Shown: positions 1,815 through 28,604 of the stretch, piece after piece
How the letters are laid out: the number at the start of each line of letters is the position of its first letter
Numbering within the stretch: the first letter of the stretch is position 1
Assembly (NCBI GenBank): GCA_902472225.1
Contig: CABRNB010000001.1
Location: 29,315-93,314 of the forward strand
Reading direction: 5' to 3'
Origin: an uncultured Anaeromassilibacillus sp.
GTDB taxonomy: Bacteria; Bacillota; Clostridia; Oscillospirales; Acutalibacteraceae
DNA length: 64,000 bases
Notes under the pieces: model-generated
The model's database searches: none
What the model was told of the DNA's origin: nothing
Seen by the model: only the letters and a program-made list of their open reading frames with translations
Program-made: the position numbers and the translations under genes

Positions 1815-3101
1815 GTGAGCAATATTTTACTGAAGAACGTCAAGGTCTATGATCCCGCCTCCAAGCGGGACGGAGCCGTCGCCGATATCCTTTTGGAGGA
1901 GGGCGTGATCCGCGCTGTCGGGCAGCGGATTGAGATGCGCGACTCGGAGGTCATCGACGGTCAGGGCCGCCTGTGCGCCGCCCCCGGACTGGTGGACATG
2001 CACGTCCACCTGCGCGATCCCGGTTTTACCGCCAAGGAGGACATTCTCACCGGCTGCCGTGCCGCTGCCGCGGGCGGTGTGACGAGTCTTTTGTGCATGC
2101 CGAATACAAAGCCCGCCGTTGATACGCCGGAGACAGTCCGCTATATTCTGGAGAAAGCGGAGCATGCCGATGCGCGTGTTTATGTGGCCGCCGCCATTAC
2201 GAAGGGGCTCGGCGACGCGGCAGAGCTTTGTGATCTCGAAGCGCTGCGGGCCGCGGGCGCCTCTGCTTTCAGCAACGACGGCCGTCCTGTGGTCGATTCC
2301 CGCAAGATGGCTGAGACGCTCAAAACGGCTGCCCGTCTCGGCGTGCCGGTCGTCTCCCACTGTGAGGATCTTTTTCTCTCGGCGGGCGGCTTGATGAACG
2401 AGGGAGCCGTCAGCAGGGAGCTCGGGGTTCCGGGGGTTCCGGCGGCAGCCGAGGACTGCGGCACTGCCCGTGAGATTGCGCTGGCCGCTGCTTACGGCGT
2501 CCCGGTGCACATTTGCCACGTCAGTACCAAAACAAGTGTGGCCATGATCCGTGACGCGCGCCGCCGCGGCGTGCAGGTGACCGGCGAGACGGCCCCGCAT
2601 TATTTCGCTCTCACGGACGAGGAACTGCGCGGCCGCGACGCGGACAAGCGGATGAGCCCGCCGCTCCGTACCGAGGAAGATCGCCTCACGGTGATTGAGG
2701 CGCTGCGTGACGGTACGCTGCAAGCCATCGCGACCGATCATGCGCCGCATACCGTCCAGGAAAAGGCCGACTTTGCGAAGGCCCCCAACGGCAGCATCGG
2801 GATGGAGACGTCGCTGGCCGCGGGCATCACGTATCTTGTGAAGCCGGGTCTGCTCACGCTTTCGGAGCTGATCCGCCTGATGAGTACATCCCCGGCCCGG
2901 CTGCTGCATCTGCACGCCGGAACGCTCGCCGAGGGAGCGCCTGCCGACGTCGTTGTTTTCGACCCGGACGAGGTCTGGACGGTGGATCCGAACGCCCTGC
3001 ACGGCAAAAGCCGCAACGCTGTCTTTAAGGGCCGGGAGCTTACGGGCCGCGTGAAGGCGACTGTTTGCCGCGGCCGCTTTGTCTGGCGCGAGAGTGTGTA
3101 A
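1815..3101 (+). CDS. pyrC: dihydroorotase
   Basis: VDMHVHLRDPGFTAKEDILTGCRAAAAGGVT..., metal-binding His/Asp pattern of the amidohydrolase family, DHAPHT motif. GTG start after GGAAAGG; the upstream part of the listed ORF (1671) looks noncoding. Confidence 0.85.
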   Translation: MSNILLKNVKVYDPASKRDGAVADILLEEGVIRAVGQRIEMRDSEVIDGQGRLCAAPGLVDMHVHLRDPGFTAKEDILTGCRAAAAGGVTSLLCMPNTKPAVDTPETVRYILEKAEHADARVYVAAAITKGLGDAAELCDLEALRAAGASAFSNDGRPVVDSRKMAETLKTAARLGVPVVSHCEDLFLSAGGLMNEGAVSRELGVPGVPAAAEDCGTAREIALAAAYGVPVHICHVSTKTSVAMIRDARRRGVQVTGETAPHYFALTDEELRGRDADKRMSPPLRTEEDRLTVIEALRDGTLQAIATDHAPHTVQEKADFAKAPNGSIGMETSLAAGITYLVKPGLLTLSELIRLMSTSPARLLHLHAGTLAEGAPADVVVFDPDEVWTVDPNALHGKSRNAVFKGRELTGRVKATVCRGRFVWRESV

Positions 3102-3205
3102 AACTTGCATCTGTCCCACGATTTCCGCCCGGAAGGGGCGAAACCATAGAACGGAAAACAAAACAGGGACGGCATGCCGTCCCGCCATGATGGAGGGTAT
3201 TTTGT

Positions 3206-4156
3206 ATGTCTCTTGACAAGATGATCGAAAAGATTGCCGCCCTGCAGAACCCCACGGTTGCGGGTCTCGATCCAAAGCTCGACTATATTCCGCAGTACCT
3301 CAGAGAAGAGGCTTATGCCAGGCACGGCCGGACGCTCGAGGGCGCCGCGGCGGCGATCTTCGCCTACAACAAGGGCCTGATCGACGCCCTGTGCGGCATT
3401 GTGCCTGCTGTCAAGCCGCAGGCTGCTTACTACGAGATGTACGGATGGCAGGGTGTTCGTACCCTGTATGAGACGATCCGCTATGCGCACGAGAAGGGCA
3501 TGTACGTGATTCTCGACGGCAAGCGCAACGACATTGGCGCGACGATGGAATCCTACGCCGCGGCCTGGCTTGGTTTGACGGCGGTGGAAAACGAGCTTGC
3601 CGAGCCGTTCGGCGCGGACAGCCTGACGGTGAACGGTTATCTCGGCAGCGACGGCATCAATCCGCTGCTCAAGGTTTGCGGCGAGCAGGGACGCGGCATC
3701 TTTGTCCTTGTCAAGACCTCCAATCCGTCTTCCGGCGAGCTGCAGGATCAGAAGCTGGAGAACGGTGAGACGATTTACCGCACGATGGGCCGTTTCTGCG
3801 AGAATTGGGGCAAGTCTCTTCCCGGCAAGTATGGCTATTCCGGGGTCGGCGCAGTAGTCGGCGCAACCTATCCGGCACAGCTCGGCGAGCTGCGTGCGGC
3901 CATGCCCTCGACCTTCTTCCTCGTGCCCGGTTACGGTGCACAGGGAGGCGGCGCGAAGGACGTTGCTCCCGGCTTTGACAAAAATGGTCTCGGAGCGATT
4001 GTGAACGCCTCGCGTTCCATTCTCTGTGCGTGGAAAAAGACGAACGCCGCGCCCGAGGATTACGCGAAGGCCGCCGCCGCGGAGGCTGTCCGCATGCGCG
4101 ACGATATCATGAGCGAGGTGGGCGAAATCCGCCTGCCGGTGGGAGGCGCGCTGTGA
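3206..4156 (+). CDS. pyrF: orotidine-5'-phosphate decarboxylase, long (type 2) form
   Basis: 315 aa, N-terminal LDPKLDYIPQY..., DGKRNDIGATM motif. Sits in the pyr gene context. Confidence 0.8.
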   Translation: MSLDKMIEKIAALQNPTVAGLDPKLDYIPQYLREEAYARHGRTLEGAAAAIFAYNKGLIDALCGIVPAVKPQAAYYEMYGWQGVRTLYETIRYAHEKGMYVILDGKRNDIGATMESYAAAWLGLTAVENELAEPFGADSLTVNGYLGSDGINPLLKVCGEQGRGIFVLVKTSNPSSGELQDQKLENGETIYRTMGRFCENWGKSLPGKYGYSGVGAVVGATYPAQLGELRAAMPSTFFLVPGYGAQGGGAKDVAPGFDKNGLGAIVNASRSILCAWKKTNAAPEDYAKAAAAEAVRMRDDIMSEVGEIRLPVGGAL

Positions 4157-4911
4157 AGCAGTATGATGTGCGGCAGTGCTGCGTGACAGACTTTACACAG
4201 CTTACGGCGGACATTTACAGCGCCTGGGTCGATGCGGGAGAGCTGGCCCGTATGGCGCGGCCCGGCCAGTTCGCGCAGATCTATGTTCCCGGCAAGACGC
4301 TGCGCCGCCCGATCTCGATCTGCGACGCGGAGGGCGGCAAACTGCGCTTTGTCTTCCAGATCCGCGGGGAAGGGACGGCCGTTCTTTCTCAAACCCGTGT
4401 GGGAGATTCCTGGGATATTCTTGCTCCGCTCGGACATGGCTTTGAACTCGGTAATACGGCGCGGAAGGCGTGCTTTGTCGGCGGCGGTATCGGCGTGCCT
4501 CCGCTTCTTGCGGCCGCGAAGTCCTTCGGAGCGAACGCTGTGGTTGTGACGGGTTTCCGCAGCAAGAGCGCCGTTATTTTACAGGATGACTTTACGAAGA
4601 AGGGCAACCGCGTCATTCTCGCTACGGACGATGGTTCCGCGGGACATCACGGCCTGGTGACCGAATGCCTGCCTGATGACTGCGAGGTCCTTTTTGCCTG
4701 CGGCCCGACCCCGATGCTCCGTGCCCTGACCGCCGAGGCCGAAAAGCGCGGCATCGAGTGCCAGATTTCGCTTGAGCAGCGGATGGCCTGCGGTATCGGT
4801 GCGTGCCTCGGCTGTGCCGTGAAGCTCAAAACGGAGGACGGCGGCTGGCGGCACGGTCATGTGTGCAAGGACGGTCCTGTTTTTGATGCGCGGATCGTCG
4901 CGTTTGACTGA
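4153..4911 (+). CDS. pyrK: dihydroorotate dehydrogenase electron-transfer subunit (FAD/2Fe-2S)
   Basis: GTG start overlapping the pyrF stop (GTGA). C-terminal CGIGACLGCAV 2Fe-2S cysteine motif. The listed ORF start at 4030 overlaps pyrF and is not the real start. Confidence 0.8.
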   Translation: MKQYDVRQCCVTDFTQLTADIYSAWVDAGELARMARPGQFAQIYVPGKTLRRPISICDAEGGKLRFVFQIRGEGTAVLSQTRVGDSWDILAPLGHGFELGNTARKACFVGGGIGVPPLLAAAKSFGANAVVVTGFRSKSAVILQDDFTKKGNRVILATDDGSAGHHGLVTECLPDDCEVLFACGPTPMLRALTAEAEKRGIECQISLEQRMACGIGACLGCAVKLKTEDGGWRHGHVCKDGPVFDARIVAFD

Positions 4912-4925
4912 GAGGAGGAGCGGAA

Positions 4926-5837
4926 ATGGCGGATTTAAAAGTAACGGTTGCCGGCGTTGAGCTGGCCAATCCCCTGATCGCGGCCTCCGGGACGTTTGGA
5001 TTTGGCCGCGAATACGCGGAATTTTATCCTCTGTCCACGCTCGGCGGCATTTCCTGTAAGGGCATCACGCTTCAGGAGCGCCCGGGCAACCCGCCTCCGC
5101 GCATTGCGGAGACGCCTTCCGGCATGCTCAACGCCGTCGGCCTGCAGAACCCCGGCGTCGATCATTTCATCGAGAAGGATCTGCCGTGGCTGCGGCAGCA
5201 GGGCACGGCTGTGATCGCGAATATCGCGGGCAACACGCCGGAGGATTACTGCGCGATGGCGGAGAAGCTTTCGGATTCCGACGTCGATATGATTGAGATG
5301 AACATTTCCTGCCCGAACGTCAAGCAGGGCGGCGTCCAGTTCGGTACCTCCTGCGAGGGCGTCGGTTCCATTACGGCGGCCGTGCGTAAACACTGTAAGA
5401 AGCCGCTGATGGTCAAGCTTTCCCCGAACGTTTCCGATATCGGCGAGATCGCCGCGGCGGCGGAGGCGGCAGGCGCGGATGCGATCTCGCTGATTAACAC
5501 GCTTACGGGCATGCGCATTGATATTCGCACGCGCCGCCCGATCATCCGCAACAACACCGGCGGCCTGAGCGGCCCGGCTGTTTTCCCGGTTGCCGTGCGC
5601 ATGGTGTGGCAGGCGTCCCAGCGGGTGAAGATCCCGGTCGTCGGCCTCGGCGGCATCGCGACCTGGCAGGATGCGGTGGAGATGCTGCTTGCCGGCGCGA
5701 CGGCTCTGCAGATCGGCACCGTTCTGTTTACCGATCCGTACGCGCCGGTCAAGATTCTCGACGGCCTGAACCGCTTCCTCGACGAGGAGGGGCTTTCCTC
5801 CGTCACGGAGCTGACCGGCGGAATCCGGCCCTGGTGA
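4926..5837 (+). CDS. pyrD: dihydroorotate dehydrogenase, class 1B catalytic subunit
   Basis: MADLKVTVAGVELANPLIAASGTFGFG..., NISCPN active-site region, 303 aa. Confidence 0.9.
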   Translation: MADLKVTVAGVELANPLIAASGTFGFGREYAEFYPLSTLGGISCKGITLQERPGNPPPRIAETPSGMLNAVGLQNPGVDHFIEKDLPWLRQQGTAVIANIAGNTPEDYCAMAEKLSDSDVDMIEMNISCPNVKQGGVQFGTSCEGVGSITAAVRKHCKKPLMVKLSPNVSDIGEIAAAAEAAGADAISLINTLTGMRIDIRTRRPIIRNNTGGLSGPAVFPVAVRMVWQASQRVKIPVVGLGGIATWQDAVEMLLAGATALQIGTVLFTDPYAPVKILDGLNRFLDEEGLSSVTELTGGIRPW

Positions 5838-5857
5838 GCGAAGGAGGCCGTACCGTT

Positions 5858-7615
5858 TTGGATTATCACTTTTATCTTCCCGTCCGGCTGCTCTGCGGAC
5901 GGGACGCGGTGCGCCGCGAGTCGGCGCGTTTTGCCGCTCTGGGGGCGCGATGCCTGCTTGTGACAGGCCGTGCCGCCGCCAGAAAAAGCGGCGCTCTCGC
6001 CGACGTGACGGCTGCTCTCGACTCTCAGGGGATCGCCTGGCGCGTGTTTGACGAGATTGGAGCTAACCCGCTCCTCCAAGACTGTGAGCGCGCCGCACAG
6101 GCGTGCGCCGGCTTTGGTGCGGATTTTGTCGTGGGGATCGGCGGAGGTTCGCCGATGGATGCGGCGAAGGCAGTAGCCGTGCTCGCCGCGAACCCCGGAA
6201 TGAGCGGCGCTTCGCTTTACTCCTCCGCCCCGCGCAAGCGCGCTCTGCCGATCGTCCTTGTGGGGACGACAAGCGGGACGGGCAGCGAGGTCAGCGCCGT
6301 TTCCGTGCTTACGGACGAATCGGGCCGCAAACGTTCGATCAAGGGCGACGATCTCTATGCGGCTTTTGCCTTCGGCGATCCGAAATACACCTTCACGATG
6401 AGCCGTGCGGAGACGATCTCCACCGGTCTAGACGCTTTCTGCCACGCGATGGAGGGCTATCTTTCGCCGCACTGTGACCGGATTTCCGCGTCGCTCGCAG
6501 AGGGGTGCCTGCCCTCGCTGTGGCGTGCGCTTTTAGCTCTGCACGAGGGGGAGCCGCTTACTGAGGCGATGCATGAATCGCTCTATGAGGATTCGCTCAC
6601 GGCCGGTCTGGTGCTCAATACCCTCGGAACTGCCTATCCGCACCCGCTCGGCTATGTGCTGACGGAGCGCTTTGGGATTCCGCATGGGCGGGCCTGCGCC
6701 GTTTTTGCCCCGTCGCTGCTCTATCTTGCGCTTGACCGCGGCTGTACGCATGCTCAGCGCCTGCTCGACCTCCTCGGCGTTCCGCTTCAGCGTTTCTCCG
6801 AGGTGTTTTCCGAGCTTGCCGACTGCGCCTCCATCCGAATGACAGATGAGGAGATTGACGCGCTTCGCAGCCGCTTGACCGGCGTTAAAAACTATGCGAA
6901 TGTTCCCGGAGGCTTTGACGAAGAGCAGGCATTGACACTGCTGCGCCGTCTTTTCGGCAGACAAACGCGGATTCTTCTCGCGCGCCACGGCGAGTCCGTC
7001 GGCAACGACATGGGGATCTTTCAGGGCCACATTGACTGCGATGTGAGTGAGAACGGAAAAAAACAGCTGGATCTGCTCAGCATCCGTCTGCGCAACGTTC
7101 CGCTTGACGCGATTGCGACGAGTCCGCTGCTGCGCGCTCGCCGCACGGCGGAGGGAATCAACCGCTTCCATCATCTTCCGATTGAAACATACGACGATCT
7201 CATCGAGATTGATGGCGGCGACTACAACGGGACGCTTTGGAGCGAACTGCCGGTTCGTTTCCCGGAGCAGAATGATAAGTGGTATCACGATCCGGCTAAC
7301 TTCGAAGCGCCGCACGGCGACACCATGCGCGAGGTTTATGAGCGGATCTGGAGAGGGCTGCTCGCCGTGGTGCGGGATCACCGCGGACAGACGGTCTGCG
7401 TTGTCTCGCATGGCAGCGCGATTCGCAACGCAATCTGCCGGATCCTCTATGGAACGATCGACCGGCTTGGCGATACGCCATGGTCGGACAACACAGGCTT
7501 TTCGACGATCGATTTTGCGGACGACGACACGCCACGCATCGTAAAGCTCAACGATGCGTCGCATCTTACGCCTGAGACGTCGTCGATGGCTAAACAGGAC
7601 TGGTGGGACGCATGA
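5858..7615 (+). CDS. Fusion protein: N-terminal iron-containing alcohol dehydrogenase-family domain (about 375 aa) plus C-terminal histidine phosphatase (phosphoglycerate-mutase-like) domain (about 200 aa)
   Basis: Fe-ADH signature GGGSPMDAAKAVA and a Gly-rich NAD fold. C-terminal RILLARHGESVGN (RHGE catalytic motif) and a later SHGSAIR motif, in one continuous frame. TTG 5858 preceded by AAGGAGG (5841-5847). The long upstream extension to 5606 overlaps pyrD. Confidence 0.7.
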   Translation: MDYHFYLPVRLLCGRDAVRRESARFAALGARCLLVTGRAAARKSGALADVTAALDSQGIAWRVFDEIGANPLLQDCERAAQACAGFGADFVVGIGGGSPMDAAKAVAVLAANPGMSGASLYSSAPRKRALPIVLVGTTSGTGSEVSAVSVLTDESGRKRSIKGDDLYAAFAFGDPKYTFTMSRAETISTGLDAFCHAMEGYLSPHCDRISASLAEGCLPSLWRALLALHEGEPLTEAMHESLYEDSLTAGLVLNTLGTAYPHPLGYVLTERFGIPHGRACAVFAPSLLYLALDRGCTHAQRLLDLLGVPLQRFSEVFSELADCASIRMTDEEIDALRSRLTGVKNYANVPGGFDEEQALTLLRRLFGRQTRILLARHGESVGNDMGIFQGHIDCDVSENGKKQLDLLSIRLRNVPLDAIATSPLLRARRTAEGINRFHHLPIETYDDLIEIDGGDYNGTLWSELPVRFPEQNDKWYHDPANFEAPHGDTMREVYERIWRGLLAVVRDHRGQTVCVVSHGSAIRNAICRILYGTIDRLGDTPWSDNTGFSTIDFADDDTPRIVKLNDASHLTPETSSMAKQDWWDA

Positions 7616-22694: not shown

Positions 22695-22954
22695 AAAATA
22701 AACCCTCCCTAAATTGAGCAGGCGGCTGAAGATAAAATTTCTGTACAAAATTTCTATAATTCTTAACCTGTTTCTGTACCTTTAGTATACAGGAAACCAA
22801 AAGAAAAGGAACTGGAATCTTGCTCTATCCTTTATATTTGTTGTGAAAGATGCCTGATTTTTCTAAACTTTGAGGGAAAAATGCTGCTTTTCCTCTTTTC
22901 TTCGGGGAGCGTCAAGGCTTTTTTCGACGCTTTTTGCACTGTTTCCACGCCGAC

Positions 22955-22992
22955 AGGCACGCACCAAAAAAAGCCGGGAGCTCAATCGGTGA
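22955..22992 (-). terminator. rho-independent terminator of dcd
   Basis: GCCGGGAGCTCA-atcgg-TGAGCTCCCGGC, followed on the minus strand by T7. Confidence 0.65.
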
Positions 22993-23016
22993 GCTCCCGG
23001 CTTTCGGGTCGGAATT

Positions 23017-23544
23017 TTATTTTCCTTTTTCAAAATCGCGATACATCATGCTGGGCTGGATTCCGGTGTTGTTCTGATATTTTCCGCTGTGGTACGGTTC
23101 ATAGTCTCCGTGGAGATCATGGTAATAAATCTGGCAGATTTCCACGTTCGGGTAAATGACAATAGGCTGCACGCAGAAAATTTCCAGAGTCCAGTAACCT
23201 GCGAAGCCTACGTCGCCGAAGCCTGCGGTCACATGGATAAACAAGCCGAGCCGTCCGGTGGAGGAACGGCCCTCCAGCATGGGAACAAAGCCCTCTGTCT
23301 TCGTATATTCATTGGTGCGCCCCAGATAAAGCCGGTGCGGCTCAAGCCGCAGTCCGCTTTCGGGGATTTCGATACGGCGGCACGGGTTCGGTACCTTCAT
23401 GTCGAGCACCGTGTTTTCGTAGACGAGCAGCTCCGGCGCAAGCGTCAGATTGTAGCTGTTCGGGTTGAGCCGGCTCTTGTCAAACGGCTCAATGATGATA
23501 TTTCCGCCGATCTGGCGTTCAATTTCCTTTCCGGATAAAATCAT
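23017..23544 (-). CDS. dcd: dCTP deaminase
   Basis: 175 aa, MILSGKEI...IIIEPFD...LHPHRLYLGRT typical of Dcd. Confidence 0.85.
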   Translation of the reverse strand: MILSGKEIERQIGGNIIIEPFDKSRLNPNSYNLTLAPELLVYENTVLDMKVPNPCRRIEIPESGLRLEPHRLYLGRTNEYTKTEGFVPMLEGRSSTGRLGLFIHVTAGFGDVGFAGYWTLEIFCVQPIVIYPNVEICQIYYHDLHGDYEPYHSGKYQNNTGIQPSMMYRDFEKGK

Positions 23545-23567: not shown

Positions 23568-24458
23568 TCAGCCGCGGTTGCCGCTCAGATAAAAAATGGC
23601 GATGCCGCCCGGGCCGGTGTGGGTGCCGAGAATCGGGCCGAGGTCGTTGACGATGATCTCCTTCGGATGGACGCGGCTTTTCGTCTGCTTATACAGATAC
23701 TTTGCATCCTCCTGAGCGTCGCAGTGCACAATGAACACCGTCTGATTTTCCGGCTGCTGGATGCTCTTTTCCATCTGGTTCAGCAGCGCGTCGAGAGACT
23801 GACGGCGGCCGCGCACCTTCATGGCGGGAATGAGATGACCCTCGTCGTCGATGCGGAGCACAGGCTTGATGCCGAGCATGGAGCCGAACAGAGCGGCAGC
23901 AGCGGAGAGACGTCCGCCGCGCTTCAAATGGTTGAGGTCGTCGACGGTGAAATACTGTGAGAGGCTGAAGCGGTGCACGCTCACCCATTCTGCCGCCTCA
24001 TCCAGGGTGGCTCCGGCTTTTTGCTTGAGGGCGGCGTAATATACGAGCAGGCCCTCGCCCATGGAGACTGCCAGGGAGTCGACCGGAACAACCCGGCGGC
24101 CCGGATATTTTTCCTTGAGCTGTTCAATGGCTTCGAGTGCGCGCTGGTATGTGCCGGACAGGGAGGAGGAGAAGCCGATATACAGCACGTCGAGCCCCTC
24201 GCGCAGATACGGCTCAAAGGTTTCGAGAAAGGTGACGGTGTTGATCTGGTTTGTCTTGGACATTTCTCCGGCGCGCAGGCGGCCGTAGAATTCCTTACTC
24301 GACATCTCACGCGCGTCCGGGTAATTGTGGTAAACCTCGTCGCCGAAGATGAACTCCATGGGAATGACTTCGACGTCGAGCTCCTCGACAAGCTTTGGAG
24401 TCAGATCGCTGGTGGAATCCGTGACAATCTTGTACGTGCAGCTGTTTTTGTTTGCCAT
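23568..24458 (-). CDS. DegV-family fatty-acid-binding protein
   Basis: YKIVTDSTSDL... EDD/DegV fold. ATG at 24458 with RBS GAGAGGAG; the listed ORF start is a TTG further upstream. Confidence 0.8.
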   Translation of the reverse strand: MANKNSCTYKIVTDSTSDLTPKLVEELDVEVIPMEFIFGDEVYHNYPDAREMSSKEFYGRLRAGEMSKTNQINTVTFLETFEPYLREGLDVLYIGFSSSLSGTYQRALEAIEQLKEKYPGRRVVPVDSLAVSMGEGLLVYYAALKQKAGATLDEAAEWVSVHRFSLSQYFTVDDLNHLKRGGRLSAAAALFGSMLGIKPVLRIDDEGHLIPAMKVRGRRQSLDALLNQMEKSIQQPENQTVFIVHCDAQEDAKYLYKQTKSRVHPKEIIVNDLGPILGTHTGPGGIAIFYLSGNRG

Positions 24459-24486
24459 TTCAGGCAGCGCTCCTCTCGACAATCAT

Positions 24487-25362
24487 TCAGTCCTTGTTGT
24501 CCGCCATGAAGAACAGGGCGATGGTGCCGGGGCCGGAATGGGCGCCGATCACCGGACCGATCATATTGATATAGATTTTGGTACCGGGGAACTTTTCGCG
24601 GATCTGGGCCGCGACATATTCGGCGTCCTGCTGGGCGTCGCCATGGCTCAGAAAAACGGTTTTGGCATTTTCCAGCTGAGCGGTTTTACCCATATGCTTG
24701 ACAAGGGCGTCAAGGGACTGGCGGCGGCCGCGCACCTTTTCGACCGGGATCAGATGACCCTCGTTGTCAACGTGAAGAACCGGCTTGATGCCGAGCATGG
24801 TGCCGACAAAGGCCGCCGTGCTGCTGACGCGTCCGCCGCGCTTCAGATGGTTGAGGTCATCGACGGTGAACCAGTGTGCGAGGTGGTTGCGGTTGTCAAT
24901 CACCCACTGCTCGAGCTCCTGCATGGAAAGGCCCGCGCGCTTCTGCTGCACGGCATAGTACACCAAAAGGCCCTCGCCCATGGAAGCGGCAAGCGTGTCC
25001 ACCACGATGATGGTGCGTTCCGGGAAGCGGGTGCGCAGCTCTTCGACCGCCATACAGGCGCTGTTGTACGTGCCGGAGAGGCCGGATGAGAACGCCATAT
25101 AGAAAAGATCATGACCGGCGCTGAGGATGGGGGTGAAGACGTCAATGAAAGTTGCCGTATTGATCTGATTGGTGGTGGAGCTTTCGCCGCTGCGGATGCG
25201 GCTGTAAAACTCTTTGGCACTCATATCACGTTCGTCGGGGTAGTTTCGATAGACCTTCTCGCCCATGACAAATTCCATGGGGATCACCTGGATGTCCAGT
25301 TCATCGATCAGGGCTGGGGTAAAGTCGCAGTTGGAATCGGTAATGATTTTGTAGTCGCTCAT
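24487..25362 (-). CDS. DegV-family fatty-acid-binding protein (tandem paralog)
   Basis: MSDYKIITDSNCDF... RBS GAGAGGAG. Confidence 0.8.
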   Translation of the reverse strand: MSDYKIITDSNCDFTPALIDELDIQVIPMEFVMGEKVYRNYPDERDMSAKEFYSRIRSGESSTTNQINTATFIDVFTPILSAGHDLFYMAFSSGLSGTYNSACMAVEELRTRFPERTIIVVDTLAASMGEGLLVYYAVQQKRAGLSMQELEQWVIDNRNHLAHWFTVDDLNHLKRGGRVSSTAAFVGTMLGIKPVLHVDNEGHLIPVEKVRGRRQSLDALVKHMGKTAQLENAKTVFLSHGDAQQDAEYVAAQIREKFPGTKIYINMIGPVIGAHSGPGTIALFFMADNKD

Positions 25363-25429
25363 AAATGGAAGCTCCTCTCATCTTTTATAGTATATCGGAA
25401 AGGGCCGCCTGGCCGAATTGTTTCATTTT

Positions 25430-25458
25430 ATTATACCTTTTTTTTGCGGATGTGTCCA
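25430..25458 (-). promoter_or_regulatory. sigma-70-like promoter for the DegV pair
   Basis: Minus strand: TGGACA-17 nt-TATAAT, about 65 nt upstream of the DegV ATG. Confidence 0.4.
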
Positions 25459-25482
25459 CCGTTTCCAGAGAAAAGCGGCGCG

Positions 25483-25515
25483 AAAAAAGGCTCCCCTCCT
25501 TGTGAGAGGGAAGCC
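25483..25515 (-). terminator. rho-independent terminator about 200 nt downstream of the DUF1292 gene
   Basis: Minus strand: GGCTTCCCTCTC-acaa-GGAGGGGAGCC TTTTTT. Confidence 0.5.
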
Positions 25516-25717
25516 GTTTTCTCAAAGTACCCCGCCTGGCCGTAATGTGTGAGAATAACCTGCCTACGGAAAGCAGGTGGGTGCCCGCCCAACGGTTTCA
25601 CGCTCCCTTCTTCCGGCAAAGCCGGGAGGTCTGCAATCTGCCGCCGGAGCTAAGCTCCCGATTCAAAAGTGTAGGGTTATCATACGCAAGTCCGCGAACC
25701 AGGCAGGAAAAGTCTTT

Positions 25718-26023
25718 TTATTCCTCTTCGGATTCCTCTGCCTCAAACATCTCGTCGAAGCGCTTTTCAAACTCAGCGGCAAGGCGATCGGCGAGCTCGT
25801 CGTCCTCCACCTCGGCCAGCTGCTGCTCGCCGTCCTCTTCGAAGGCCTGGAAAATATAGTAGGAGCCGTCGGCTTCTACCTGATCCTGCGGATCTTCAAA
25901 GGTGGGGAGCAGGGCGTAGAAGCAGCCCTCGTCGTTTTCTATGATATCCAGGATCTCAAACTCATGCTCCTGGCCGTCCTCGTCCACAAGTGTGAGCAGA
26001 TCCGGGCTGAAATCTTCGTTCAT
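25718..26023 (-). CDS. DUF1292-family small acidic protein
   Basis: MNEDFSPDLLTLVDEDGQEHEFEILD... with acidic C-tail. RBS AAAGGAG. The listed ORF start at 26161 is an upstream extension without an RBS. Confidence 0.65.
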   Translation of the reverse strand: MNEDFSPDLLTLVDEDGQEHEFEILDIIENDEGCFYALLPTFEDPQDQVEADGSYYIFQAFEEDGEQQLAEVEDDELADRLAAEFEKRFDEMFEAEESEEE

Positions 26024-26161
26024 ACCAAAGCATACTCCTTTCTGAAGAACTCTTTCGTATGTATTGTACATGCGATTTGCTCCGAAGTCAACCGAAAAAT
26101 CAATGAAAGAAAAAATAAACAGTTTTTTAAAAGTTTGTTTATATTTTTTCATCAAAAACAC

Positions 26162-26190
26162 TTGACAATACCGCGCCGGTGTAGTATAGT
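26162..26190 (+). promoter_or_regulatory. near-consensus sigma-70 promoter reading into the AT-rich noncoding island
   Basis: TTGACA (26162-26167), a 17-nt spacer, TATAGT (26185-26190), then TATAAT three nt later. Confidence 0.6.
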
Positions 26191-26196
26191 ATAATC

Positions 26197-27456
26197 ACAA
26201 CAAAGGAAGAGATACAAAGAAAGCAGACAAAATATCCGCTGAAAGCAAAAGAAGGAATTTTGCATTAACAAAGTTTTTTCAGCAAGGGAAGCGGATAAGA
26301 AGAATGTGGAAGGAATGTCTGCGAATTGTACCACTCACTTTTGTGCAGATTTAGACAGAAAGGGGTGCAGTCCAATGGACACCAAACCGCAGCAGTATCC
26401 GGCAGACGTTGTTCTGTTGGACGGCGTCTGCTGAGATAAAGAAAACGTGTTCTCTACAAGAGCGGTAAAGCTGATGAATACCAGAGGAATGAGAGCAAAG
26501 GCATAGAGGTATGTATTGCGGATCATTCGGAAAAGGGAAAGGCAGCGAAACCGTAAATATCGTGTAGACCAAAAGCTTTGAGCTGAATTGATGGTTAGCT
26601 CGGATTTTATTGAACCATTTGTACAGAAAGGAACGGGAAGTAAATCCAGTGCAGTTTCTGAGCATGGTCTCAATGAATCGAAGGTTTGCAGAATAGCGTG
26701 ATCTATTTTCAAAAACCCGATTGTAGCTTTTGGAAAAGCTTGAAACATTTTCGTTTCACGAAACAAAGAGTGCGGTAATTCTGGAAAATAGCTAAGCACG
26801 CAGTTGAAATTCTGAAAACTTTTTCTTAGGTGAAGCCCAATGTACAGCATTTGACCCTTCTGAAAAGAAGGAAACGGATATTTCCCTTTCGCGTAGACTT
26901 TTAGAAGTTACAGCAACATTCTTTGGAGATTAAGAATGACTGGAAACAAAATGAATCCCATGCAGTGATAAAGTGGAAGCTCCGGAAAAGGAGTGGATTC
27001 CCCTCAGCGGTGATTTTTAAGTGTTACGGCGACGTTCCGTTTATGGAATGACCGGAAACAAATAAAATTCCATGCAGTGATTCTATAGAAGCTTCGAAGG
27101 AGAAGCGTTGTTCCAAGCGGTGAATTTTAGTAGTTACGGCAACGGTTTTCATCAGAAGACAGACCGGAAACAAACGATTTCCAAGCAGTGAACCTATAGA
27201 GCTTCAAAGAAGAAGCGTTGTTCCCAAGCGGTGAATTTTAGCAGCTCCGGCGACGGTTTGCGGATGCAGGCTGACCGGAAGCACAAGACTCCCAGCAGTG
27301 AACAAAGAAGCTTCGAAGGAGAAGCAGTTTATCACCAGCAGAGATTTATGTAGTTACAGCAACATTTCTCCGGTTTGAGAGAATGACTGTAAACCCTTAA
27401 TCCCATGCACAGATAAAAGTATTACGAGAGCCCCGGCCGGTACCGCCGGGGCTCTC
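26197..27456 (+). ncRNA. candidate long noncoding RNA (about 1.26 kb) containing about 4.5 degenerate tandem repeats of about 110 nt; no credible ORF on either strand
   Basis: Strong promoter upstream and a GC-rich 12-bp hairpin at the 3' end. GC about 42 % versus about 62 % in flanks. Only junk ORFs in the six-frame track. Conserved submotifs in every repeat unit. Confidence 0.45.
26895..27420 (+). repeat. tandem direct repeats, about 110-bp period, roughly 4.5 copies, about 65-75 % identical
   Basis: Recurring blocks TTTTAG-(T/C)AGTTACGGCAACG, GACCGGAAACAAA, CATGCAGTGA, GAAGCTTCGAAGGAGAAGCGTTGTTCC, AAGCGGTGA. GTTAC(G/A)GC recurs at 26907, 27023, 27134, 27245 and 27354. Confidence 0.8.
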
Positions 27457-27460
27457 TTGA
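27426..27460. terminator. GC-rich hairpin closing the noncoding island (possibly bidirectional)
   Basis: GAGAGCCCCGGC-cggtacc-GCCGGGGCTCTC. U-rich on the minus-strand side, TTGATCT on the plus side. A second hairpin GTCCGGA...TCCGGAC follows immediately. Confidence 0.55.
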
Positions 27461-27680
27461 TCTGTCCGGACCACGGATCCGGACGGTGGAAACGCATTTG
27501 CCTTTTCTCCTGCTCTTTGGCGGAGCCCCGTTTTGCAGTTGGTTTCCTGTGAAAAGGAAATGTGAATTAATTGTAAACTTTTGGCTGTTGAGTGAGAAAA
27601 TCACTTTTTTCCTGTTCTGTTTTTGCTATACTGAAAACCACAAGCTCCCTTTTTGGGGCAGCAGAAAGGCGGAATTTTAG

Positions 27681-28604
27681 ATGGATCATAAAATTTGGGA
27701 TGTTATCATCGTCGGAGGCGGTCCCGGCGGCTACACGGCGGCTTTGTACTGCGGCCGTGCGGCGCTTTCCGTTCTTGTCCTTGAGAAAATGGCGCCTGGC
27801 GGTCAGATGGGGACGACGGATCAGATTGACAATTATCCCGGCTTCCCGGAGGGAATTAACGGATTTGATCTTGCCATGCAGATGCAGCAGAGCGCTGAAA
27901 GATTTGGTGCGCAGACGCGCCTTGAGGACGTCGTCCGTCTCTCTCTGGAGGGAGAGATCAAAACGGTCGTCACTTCCTCCGGCGAATACAAGGCGCGCAC
28001 CGTGGTTCTGGCTACCGGGGCGGCTCCCCGTGAGCTGGGGCTGCCTCGGGAACGCGAGCTGCGCGGCCGCGGCGTTTCTTATTGCGCGACGTGCGACGGC
28101 ATGTTTTATCGCGGCAAAGAGGTCGTGGTGGTAGGCGGAGGCAACACAGCGGCCGCCGATGCGCTGTATCTCTCAAAGCTCTGCGGAAAGGTGACGATTG
28201 TGCACCGCCGCGATACGCTGCGTGCTTCGAAAGCATATCTCAAGCCTCTTCAGGAGTGCGGCAACGTGGAAATCCTTTGGGACAGCCTGCCGGACGAGAT
28301 TCTCGGAGAGAACGCTGTTTCCGGCTTGCGGGTGAAAAATAAAAAGACAGGCGAGACGCAGGATGTGCCTTGCGCCGGTATTTTCGTTGCAATCGGAAAC
28401 GAGCCGAATACGGCTCTCTTCGCGGACAGTGTTGCTCTCGACGGCGGCTATGTCGCTGCGGATGAAACGACCCGTACCAATCTTCCGGGCGTTTTTGCGG
28501 TGGGCGATGTTCGCCGCAAGCCGCTGCGCCAGGTGGTTACCGCCGTTGCGGACGGCGCGATGGCTTCCCATTTCATTGAGGAATACCTCTCCGAGGTTCA
28601 TTGA
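27681..28604 (+). CDS. trxB: thioredoxin-disulfide reductase
   Basis: GGGPGG FAD motif, redox-active CATC, GGGNTA NADPH motif. 307 aa. Confidence 0.9.
   Translation: MDHKIWDVIIVGGGPGGYTAALYCGRAALSVLVLEKMAPGGQMGTTDQIDNYPGFPEGINGFDLAMQMQQSAERFGAQTRLEDVVRLSLEGEIKTVVTSSGEYKARTVVLATGAAPRELGLPRERELRGRGVSYCATCDGMFYRGKEVVVVGGGNTAAADALYLSKLCGKVTIVHRRDTLRASKAYLKPLQECGNVEILWDSLPDEILGENAVSGLRVKNKKTGETQDVPCAGIFVAIGNEPNTALFADSVALDGGYVAADETTRTNLPGVFAVGDVRRKPLRQVVTAVADGAMASHFIEEYLSEVH

Follow-up and report, generated by a model that had tools for sequence, protein, structure and literature searches.

The predicted RNA encoded at positions 26197-27456 (+) belongs to an apparently undescribed family of long, folded RNAs, mostly non-coding as judged from sequence alone, that lies next to the 6S RNA gene in many gut Clostridia. 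The window analysed is a stretch of 64,000 nucleotides from an uncultured Anaeromassilibacillus sp. (GCA_902472225.1, contig CABRNB010000001.1, positions 29,315 to 93,314 of the forward strand). The initial annotation had described here a 1.26-kb candidate noncoding RNA with a near-consensus promoter, a GC-rich terminal hairpin and no credible ORF, in an AT-rich island. This observation is confirmed. The interpretation attached to it, a novel large RNA, a scaffold or sponge built from repeated modules, or a decayed mobile element, is only partly supported. The unit is discrete, conserved and strand-specific, and it is built partly from repeated modules as had been suspected, but it is not strictly ORF-free, the modules are not the conserved part of the family, and the mobile-element alternative is contradicted by the conservation pattern.

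Features of the predicted RNA and its conserved neighbours. Positions are those of the window; R1 is the covariance model of the 111-nt module.
Position	Strand	Feature	Description
25525-25712	-	6S RNA gene	Rfam RF00013, 66 bits, E = 4.5e-12; between DUF1292 and DegV
25718-26023	-	DUF1292 gene	6S lies downstream; the pair is divergent from the long RNA
26162-26190	+	Sigma-70-type promoter	TTGACA-17-TATAGT, 11 of 12 matches; predicted transcription start about 26197
26197-27456	+	Predicted 1.26-kb RNA	A 33%, G 25%, U 24%, C 18%; GC 43.3%
26233-26297	+	Predicted 5' leader hairpin	UAUCCGCU ... AGCGGAUA, inner GCAAAA/UUUUGC stem
26357-26378	+	M1 element	AGAAAGGGGUGCAGUCCAAUGG; strong Shine-Dalgarno-like run, spacer, AUG
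26366-26375	+	5' strand of long-range pairing (pseudoknot or alternative structure)	GUCCAA (26370-26375) with UUGGAC (26417-26422), flanking pairs on both sides
26375-26434	+	19-codon small ORF	MDTKPQQYPADVVLLDGVC, stop UGA
26396-26438	+	Hairpin inside the small ORF	Loop carries UCUGUUGGAC (26413-26422); stop codon in 3' base; dG -28.6 kcal/mol, z = -6.0
26696-26801	+	Central P1 domain	GCGUG-AU-CUAUUUUC with GGAAAAUAG-CUAAG-CACGC; encloses two small hairpins (AGCUUUU/AAAAGCU, GAAAC/GUUUC)
26828-26854	+	M4 element	AGGUGAAGCCCA-AUG-UAC-AGC-AUU-UGA; RBS-like motif, 4-codon ORF at 26840-26854
26890-27003	+	Module 1	R1 97.5 bits; most diverged copy
27006-27115	+	Module 2	R1 107.2 bits; linker GCGGUGA, long hairpin A (GUUACGG ... 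CCGGAAAC, variable inner hairpin), linker YCCAUGCAGUGA, hairpin B (GCUUC-6 nt-GAAGC)
27116-27225	+	Module 3	R1 116.9 bits
27227-27334	+	Module 4	R1 99.6 bits
27337-27461	+	Terminal half-module	R1 38.6 bits; hairpin A and linker kept, terminator hairpin in place of hairpin B
27426-27456	+	Terminator-like 3' hairpin	GAGAGCCCCGGC (27426-27437) / GCCGGGGCUCUC (27445-27456); 12 bp, 7-nt loop CGGUACC
27624-27632	+	TGnTATACT element	Extended -10-like element before trxB, by eye only

The promoter is kept at the same place in all 29 homologous loci listed, in the form TTGAC(A/T/C)-16/18-TAnnnT, with TATAAT in most. The U-tail of the terminal hairpin is weak (CUUGAUCU), so that the terminator scan did not report it. 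However, related lineages carry the same hairpin followed by U-runs, and GGUACCGCCGGGGCUC is invariant in the clade. The terminator loop GGUACCGC is complementary to the module linker GCGGUG. The GC content of the RNA compares with 59.1% for the whole window and about 57-59% for the flanks; the difference is therefore 16 points rather than 20, and the flanks are not at 62% GC, as had been stated in the initial annotation. Another AT-rich dip, at 22700-23000, is an ordinary intergenic region.

The longest sense ORF is 42 aa, and the longest ORFs in other lineages look random. An antisense ORF of 171 aa at 26335-26850, currently predicted by gene callers as a protein, matched only three clusters among 5.8 billion proteins, itself and two partial neighbours, all from this same locus type. 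This ORF is spurious and is explained by the purine-rich sense strand. Indels between lineages are not multiples of three, and neither a conserved long reading frame nor translated homology was found. However, the earlier statement that no credible ORF exists is too strong, since it overlooked the 19-codon ORF behind a very strong RBS and the 4-codon ORF of M4. The adjacent 6S RNA gene had also been missed. The claim that trxB has its own promoter was not borne out by the promoter scan, which called none between the RNA and trxB. Independence from trxB is better shown by lineages in which other genes lie between the two.

The RNA is syntenic and 98-99.7% identical in same-species contigs and 65-80% identical in five related lineages, whereas four-fold sites of the neighbouring trxB are only 41-47% identical, indicating purifying selection. 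The same promoter-to-terminator unit, with an ORF-poor, A-rich and C-poor stretch in between, lies divergent from a DUF1292-6S RNA pair in all 29 loci tested, spanning at least 23 lineages with DUF1292 identity of 55-100%. 6S follows DUF1292 in all 9 other loci scanned. Predicted lengths range from about 0.45 to 1.45 kb. The initial annotation had set a search of Rfam as a check. Covariance-model scans against Rfam 15 of positions 25000-28500 at E <= 1, and of the whole window at gathering score, returned only 6S on the opposite strand, and permissive scans (E <= 1) of seven distant family members gave no hit inside the RNA. No match was found in viral contigs. Literature searches by topic, by DUF1292 and by sequence strings found no prior description, and the conserved strings are absent from the first 200 of 408 supplementary files of Fremin & Bhatt 2021 (PMC8040213), although an unnamed prediction elsewhere is not excluded.

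Folding of the three parts of the RNA gave z-scores of -5.5 (26197-26460), -2.7 and -3.9. The 5' leader hairpin is known only from the minimum-free-energy fold of the first part. The M1 element forms a duplex of -14.7 kcal/mol with the 16S 3' end, of which it is a near-full complement, and is the strongest such site in the RNA. It is kept in all 24 members examined and is mostly unpaired in most of them. Sequestration of its SD by an upstream anti-SD mimic is seen in the window fold but not across lineages. A 15-32 codon ORF starts at the same AUG in all 24 members (GUG in L035; L numbers designate the lineages and loci compared), and in five close lineages the ORF keeps its length, including a UGA-to-UAA change. 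"Noncoding" is therefore unproven. An equivalent of the hairpin inside the ORF, with unrelated stem sequences, is present in nearly all 24 members (mean z = -3). The pairing between M1 and the hairpin loop has duplex energies averaging -12.7 kcal/mol, and 16 of 24 members beat 95% of shuffles. When the register was anchored by hand on the CC-GG pair, 83% of cells were paired against 13-41% in slid controls, with compensatory UA/GC/CG changes and 16 cells with double changes against 6.9 +/- 1.9 in shuffles.

The central P1 domain includes a 24-nt invariant block, and its RNAalifold structure shows compensatory changes in L051/L048 and in the L026 group. An element of the M4 type, GGUGA-N-YCC-AUG-UAY followed by a stop within 0-2 further codons (UAA, UAG or UGA), is found in most lineages. 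Short SD+AUG ORFs number 33 against 14.7 +/- 3.8 in shuffles.

The 3' part is an array of 4.5 modules of 107-116 nt, preceded by about 690 nt of unique conserved RNA. The unit number varies from 3 to 6 across strains and lineages, and one unit is missing in another strain of the same species (L003, GCA_003343645.1). Across 21 units, 96.6% of cells are paired against 30-51% in slid controls, the covariation score is 0.386 against 0.22 in shuffles, and 42 cells carry double changes against 14 +/- 3.5. The 25 G.U cells fit only the + strand. Homologous sequences and repeat units are related to one another, so that the covariation statistics overstate independence. The 111-nt modules are confined to one clade and cannot carry the core function of the family; L051 has no repeats, and no further copy of the module occurs in the window. 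Other lineages amplified different modules carrying the same motif: L036 has six units of about 63 nt and L035 two of about 105 nt.

Our preferred reading, held with no more than even confidence, is that of a functional structured RNA with an RBS switch and a multivalent 3' platform, acting as scaffold or decoy, kept at a fixed chromosomal position in Oscillospiraceae-type gut Clostridia. The comparisons themselves establish the conserved promoter and terminator, the selection on the sequence, the strand-specific covarying helices, the conserved 5' core, central domain and M4 element, and the lineage-specific array of variable unit number. Transcription as a discrete and abundant molecule, its ends, translation of the small ORFs and the whole mechanism are inferred. 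In this view the RNA would act mainly as RNA. With M1 free, a ribosome would load and read the 19-codon ORF, melting the hairpin and stopping at its base; alternatively M1 would pair with the hairpin loop in a pseudoknot and occlude the start. The state of this switch would decide how the downstream RNA folds or how long it lives. The array would present 9-10 copies of a conserved single-stranded linker (YCC-N-GC-NNN-GA), held between covarying hairpins, as a platform for many copies of one trans-acting partner, a protein or the small ribosomal subunit, much as CsrB binds CsrA or the neighbouring 6S binds RNA polymerase. However, no partner protein is evident in the neighbourhood, and anti-SD-binding sites are not enriched overall in the window RNA (13 against 14.3 +/- 2.3 in shuffles), which argued against a general SD sponge.

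Only a handful of large structured bacterial RNA classes are known, each of which has proved to be either an essential machine or a long-standing puzzle. The present family, from uncultured or little-studied human-gut Clostridia, combines features not usually seen together: a very strong RBS-like element gated, in our reading, by a covarying pseudoknot, tiny ORFs, and lineage-specific tandem amplification of folded modules. If expressed, it offers a tractable case of a dual-function or decoy RNA in Firmicutes, a phylum in which CsrB-like sponges have not been found.

The main rival, which we consider unlikely but cannot exclude, is a micro-peptide mRNA whose product is the 15-32 aa peptide (here MDTKPQQYPADVVLLDGVC), the roughly 1 kb that follows being a long structured 3' UTR giving stability or regulation. 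The strong and accessible RBS and the conserved AUG and ORF length are consistent with this. The N-terminus follows a loose M-[GDVN]-x-x-E-P-Q-[HNQ] pattern with synonymous changes (GAA/GAG, CCG/CCA/CCC/CCU, CAG/CAA, GUU/GUA), codon position 3 varies most (variable sites at positions 1/2/3 of 10/5/16, a small and only weakly coding-like signal), and the stop sits at the base of the hairpin although the frame relative to the hairpin differs between lineages. However, the C-terminal half is not conserved as peptide, the conserved loop UCUGUUGGRCU being read in three different frames, the stems covary as RNA, and most of the conservation, including the longest invariant block, of 24 nt, and several of 12-17 nt, lies far downstream of the ORF. 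A ribosome (30S) decoy is less likely still. Here the recurring GGUGAGUCCAAUG-type elements, each with an immediate stop codon, would capture small subunits or initiating ribosomes as a translational counterpart of 6S. The strength of M1, the enrichment of short ORFs, the use of all three stop codons by recurring 2-4 codon ORFs (six in tandem in L036) and the constant linkage to 6S are compatible with this model. Against it, besides the lack of SD-site enrichment, only about half of the window-clade modules keep AUG-NNN-UGA, copies M2 and M3 of the motif have no AUG, and the most invariant part of M1 is the spacer GAGUCCAA rather than the GGAGG core, which is explained by the pairing with the loop. 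In its boldest and equally doubtful form, such a mimic of translation-initiation regions, gated by the start-site pseudoknot, would be a new class of regulatory RNA working through the translation machinery, and one locus would encode decoys for both RNA polymerase and the ribosome.

The remaining alternatives are very unlikely. A leader or read-through 5' UTR of trxB is suggested by the shared orientation, the start of trxB 225 nt downstream, the weak U-tract and the absence of a called promoter. However, other genes intervene in the L009/L014/L026 lineage, where the gap reaches 2.6 kb, in many lineages trxB is not the neighbour at all whereas DUF1292-6S always is, the terminator hairpin is conserved, and no riboswitch family matches. 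A non-functional remnant (pseudogene, decayed mobile element or DNA-level repeats such as protein-binding iterons), suggested by the AT-rich island and the variable repeat, is contradicted by conservation far above neutral sites and by compensatory changes and G.U pairs fitting only one strand. Repeat units as small peptide genes were rejected because frames are not kept between lineages. A K-turn in hairpin A, integron attC sites and DGR template/variable repeats were dismissed on reading the sequence, as the required sequence features or neighbouring genes are absent. The promoter, tandem direct repeats and terminator recall the ToxI antitoxin RNAs of type III toxin-antitoxin systems, but no toxin gene follows: the next gene is trxB with its full set of Pyr_redox domains, and in other lineages an HTH gene and an unrelated ORF. 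ToxI repeats are moreover about 34-45 nt, three times shorter than the present units, a large unique 5' domain precedes the array, and family members outside the clade have no repeats.

Among known systems, OLE, ROOL, GOLLD, raiA and HEARO are likewise hundreds of nucleotides to more than 1 kb long, independently transcribed as is predicted for the present RNA, with many covarying helices separated by invariant blocks, limited to certain lineages and carrying variable insertions. The present RNA matches none of their covariance models, occupies a fixed locus next to 6S rather than prophages or the oap genes, and carries a conserved RBS plus small ORF and a tandem array. 6S is a strongly expressed non-coding RNA at the same locus, from which the idea of mimicking a nucleic-acid substrate of a core machine is borrowed, but the two share no sequence or structural similarity. 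As in CsrB/RsmZ-type sponges, a short motif is repeated between or within hairpins, repeat number differs between species and strains, and promoter and terminator are its own. However, the conserved motif lies in the linkers and not as GGA in hairpin loops: hairpin B loops vary (GGAAAA, GAAGGA, AAAGAA, GAUGAU), several lack GGA, as do M1 variants such as AGAGGUGA and GGGGUGA, no CsrA link was found, and the RNA is much longer with a unique 5' half. In the rpsO/S15 operator and the preQ1-II or SAM-II riboswitches, a hairpin loop pairs with the translation start region, which alternates between free and sequestered states; here the ORF concerned has only 19 codons and is not followed by a gene, and no Rfam riboswitch model matches. 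Finally, in dual-function RNAs such as Staphylococcus aureus RNAIII (hld) or Bacillus SR1, a small ORF near the 5' end precedes a long multi-hairpin regulatory body ending in a terminator hairpin. The present RNA has no agr-type neighbours, its putative peptide is even shorter and poorly conserved in its C-terminal half, and it is 2-3 times longer and includes tandem modules.

The stretch is as the initial annotation described it, and that observation holds: a TTGACA-17-TATAGT promoter matching 11 of 12 positions is followed, at the far end, by a perfect 12-bp GC hairpin, and the longest sense-strand ORF between them is 42 aa. GC is 43.3% against 59.1% for the window, which is 16 points lower rather than the 20 that had been claimed. 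The predicted RNA strand is purine-rich and C-poor (A 33%, G 25%, U 24%, C 18%), which explains the long, stop-poor antisense ORF of 171 aa. This ORF is called as a gene in several public assemblies, but in a collection of 5.8 billion proteins it has only three clusters, all from this same locus type, and is therefore spurious, an artefact of the purine-rich sense strand. Three further details of the initial annotation need correction. A 6S RNA gene (RF00013, 66 bits) that it did not notice lies directly downstream of DUF1292, between DUF1292 and DegV; two tandem DegV-family paralogues and then a dCTP deaminase gene follow 6S. The terminal hairpin has a weak U-tract here and was not called by the terminator scan. 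Finally, the region is not free of plausible ORFs. The interpretation as a long noncoding RNA without a credible ORF is only partly supported. The coordinates of the features are collected below.

Positions of the features in the window and in other loci
Sequence	Feature	Position	Strand
Window	dCTP deaminase gene	23017-23544	-
Window	DegV-family paralogue	23568-24482	-
Window	DegV-family paralogue	24487-25362	-
Window	6S RNA gene	25525-25712	-
Window	DUF1292 gene	25718-26023	-
Window	Promoter TTGACA-17-TATAGT	26162-26190	
Window	Anti-SD-like run and the M1 Shine-Dalgarno run predicted to pair with it	26319-26333 with 26357-26369	
Window	Spurious 171-aa ORF	26335-26850	-
Window	M1 element	26357-26378	
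Window	Small ORF of the 5' core	26375-26434	
Window	Central domain	26696-26801	
Window	M4 element	26828-26854	
Window	111-nt array	26890 to the terminator	
Window	Module linker and complementary part of the terminator hairpin	27111-27126 and 27440-27452	
Window	12-bp GC hairpin	27426-27456	
L003 (GCA_003343645.1, QAKT01000015.1)	Locus lacking one 111-nt unit	4455-5924	
L009 and L010	Contig ends with discordant DUF1292	6001-6449	
L017 (Mucilaginibacter sp. SMC90 chromosome)	Chance match of the 20-nt pattern	743-762	
L036	Locus with six modules of about 63 nt	691-1652	-
L051	Locus with an insertion of about 680 nt	2315-3733	-

The element is conserved and under selection. Contigs carrying the identical DUF1292 protein show the same gene order (6S, DUF1292, the RNA, then trxB), and in them the RNA is 98-99.7% identical. 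Another strain of the same species (L003, an NCBI genome) lacks exactly one 111-nt unit of the array, so that the copy number changes within the species. Using the spurious ORF as bait, together with a 20-nt invariant block as a DNA pattern, we recovered five further lineages, including MAGs named uncultured Oscillospiraceae bacterium and Anaeromassilibacillus sp. The single exact match of this pattern outside Clostridia, on the Mucilaginibacter chromosome, showed no other similarity to the RNA and is a chance hit. The RNAs of the five lineages are 65-80% identical to the window, with invariant blocks of up to 24 nt, whereas four-fold degenerate sites of the adjacent trxB are only 41-47% identical in the same comparisons. 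Indels between lineages are not multiples of three, and the promoter and the terminator hairpin are kept in all of them. In two contigs (L009 and L010) the DUF1292 protein is 100% identical to that of the window, but the adjacent RNA and trxB are of the type found in locus L014, whose own DUF1292 is only about 79% identical. Both contigs end just after DUF1292, which suggests a chimeric assembly or a recombination point at the conserved DUF1292-6S segment.

The family is much wider than the repeat array. A metagenome scan with the DUF1292 protein returned 80 loci, with 54-100% protein identity, and a profile of the 5' 570 nt found full homologues in several more lineages as well as weak but colinear matches in the loci L048, L049, L051 and L035. 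We read those loci and then scanned every locus with enough upstream DNA. Lineage boundaries, promoters and terminators in the distant loci rest on our own pattern and energy scans. All 29 tested loci, spanning at least 23 lineages, share the same layout: a TTGAC(A/T/C)-16/18-TAnnnT promoter (TATAAT in most) lies 123-315 nt from the DUF1292 start in the divergent orientation, followed by a 430-1436 nt A-rich, C-poor stretch containing only short, random-looking ORFs, and a strong terminator ends the unit. 6S follows DUF1292 in every locus scanned, including all 9 loci other than that of the window. Neither the window nor seven distant members match any Rfam 15 family inside the RNA. Literature searches by topic and by sequence string found no description, although we cannot exclude an unnamed prediction of parts of this RNA in large-scale screens.

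All 24 members examined share an element of the 5' core that we call M1, AAAG(R)GGUGAGUCC(N)AUG, in which the start is GUG in L035. In the window M1 reads AGAAAGGGGUGCAGUCCAAUGG. It is close to the full complement of the 16S rRNA 3' tail and, at -14.7 kcal/mol, is by far the strongest anti-SD partner in the RNA. M1 is mostly unpaired in the predicted ensembles of most lineages. In the window and in the locus L022, however, an upstream anti-SD-like run (UGUACCACUCACUUU) is predicted to pair with the M1 Shine-Dalgarno run, a pairing that is not predicted in most other lineages. The AUG opens an ORF of 15-32 codons, which in the window would encode MDTKPQQYPADVVLLDGVC. In favour of a functional peptide, the N-terminus follows a loose M-[GDVN]-x-x-E-P-Q-[HNQ] pattern with synonymous changes, and variable sites at codon positions 1, 2 and 3 number 10, 5 and 16. 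Against it, a conserved loop within the ORF is read in three different frames in different lineages, and the C-terminal peptide is therefore not conserved.

The 3' half of this ORF is a hairpin present in nearly all 24 members examined, with a mean z-score of -3 and with unrelated stem sequences, such as GCAGACG/CGUCUGC, GGCAGCUGC/GCAGUUGCC, AGCGGC/GCCGCU and GUCUGCGGA/UCCGCAGAC. The stop codon sits at or within the 3' base of the hairpin. The loop (UCUGUUGGRCU, or GCGGACUCAC in another group) is complementary to the spacer and start of M1 (GUGAGUCCAA). Duplex energies average -12.7 kcal/mol, and 16 of 24 members beat 95% of shuffled controls. On an alignment that we anchored on the invariant CC-GG pair, 83% of cells pair, compared to only 13-41% with the partner slid, although the sequences used for covariation are related to one another. 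Compensatory exchanges are present (U-A to G-C or C-G, G-C to C-G, and A-U to G-C). The window clade has GCAGUCCAA pairing with UUGGRCUGC, while other clades have UGAGUCCAA pairing with UUGGACUCA. On these predictions, the start region can therefore be either free or tied into a pseudoknot that competes with the inner part of the hairpin.

The central domain is closed by GCGUG..CUAUUUUC pairing with GGAAAAUAG..CACGC and holds two small hairpins. Distant members keep it through compensatory changes. Downstream lies M4, which in the window reads AGGUGAAGCCCA-AUG-UAC-AGC-AUU-UGA. The same element recurs in most lineages as GGUGA, a short spacer, YCC, AUG and usually UAY, followed by a stop after 0-2 more codons, using UAA, UAG or UGA. 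Across 23 lineages there are 33 SD+AUG sites with ORFs of four codons or fewer, compared to 14.7 +/- 3.8 in dinucleotide shuffles (maximum of 27 in 200). The distant family member L036 has six tandem modules of about 63 nt, each reading GGUGAGUCCRAUG-NNN-UAR, that is GGUGAGUCC(A/G)AUG, one sense codon and then UAA or UAG, followed by a small hairpin and CCAAAAUA, which forms a strikingly regular array of two-codon ORFs. However, other copies of the GGUGAGUCC motif, which we call M2 and M3, have no AUG, and the motif is therefore not simply a start site.

The 111-nt array of the window consists of four full units and a terminal half-unit, in which the terminator replaces the last hairpin. Each unit comprises, in order, the linker AGCGGUGA-AUUUUAG; hairpin A, GUUACGG ... 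CCGGAAAC, enclosing a variable inner hairpin; the linker AAA..YCC(A)UGCAGUGA..UAUAG; and hairpin B, GCUUC-6 nt-GAAGC. Across 21 units from five lineages, 96.6% of cells pair, against 30-51% when the partner is slid, and 42 cells show changes on both sides, against 14 +/- 3.5 in shuffles, although these repeat units too are related to one another. Examples are GUU/AAC changing to GCU/AGC and CGG/CCG changing to CAG/CUG. The inner hairpin is almost free in sequence. Twenty-five cells are G.U pairs, which would be mismatches on the other strand. The invariant residues lie in the linkers, as GC-NNN-GA twice per unit. In addition, the module linker GCGGUG is complementary to the invariant loop and 3' shoulder of the terminator hairpin (GUACCGC), with a duplex energy of -13.3 kcal/mol. 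This is the best partner in the RNA and could be an intra- or intermolecular contact. A covariance model of the unit finds 3-6 units per RNA in the close clade, and none elsewhere in the window or in distant family members. Other lineages carry large insertions of their own: L051 instead has about 680 nt inserted between M1 and the central domain, and the lineage of L026 and L014 has a very purine-rich insertion of about 260 nt in the leader, with many GGAA/AGGG runs. Predicted folding energies are lower than those of shuffles for all three parts of the RNA (z = -5.5, -2.7 and -3.9).

Taken together, the analysis establishes from sequence a conserved, strand-specific, structured unit with a predicted promoter and terminator that belongs to no catalogued family, and that has a conserved core and lineage-specific expansions. 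Its transcription, its translation and its mode of action are inferred, and all functional statements remain hypotheses. We infer that it acts mainly as RNA, and two features point to a mechanism. The 5' core looks like a translational switch, in which an exceptionally strong RBS and start codon, predicted to be accessible, could be captured by the loop of the hairpin that the ORF itself traverses; in this view ribosome loading and RNA folding would be mutually exclusive states. Moreover, different lineages have independently amplified modules carrying the family motif, and copy number varies even within a species. That is typical of RNAs that work by offering many binding sites, such as scaffolds, sponges or decoys, and is not typical of single-site machines.

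As a putative partner, the ribosome or 30S subunit is an attractive candidate, given M1, M4 and the constant pairing with 6S RNA. However, SD-like sites are not enriched in the window RNA and only about half of the window-clade units keep AUG-NNN-UGA, and we therefore rank that specific version lower. The main rival is that the peptide is the product and that the rest is a long structured tail. A trxB leader, a type III antitoxin, a CsrB-like sponge, a pseudogene and a DNA-level repeat each fail a defining feature.

Long structured and dual-function bacterial RNAs are already known, and we consider what is described here to be a new family among them. In size and style it resembles the large ornate ncRNAs OLE, ROOL, GOLLD and raiA, but it matches none of their models. 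In logic it resembles CsrB-type multivalent RNAs and dual-function RNAs such as RNAIII, and its predicted start-site pseudoknot resembles RBS-occluding operators and riboswitches, although it is not a member of any of these.
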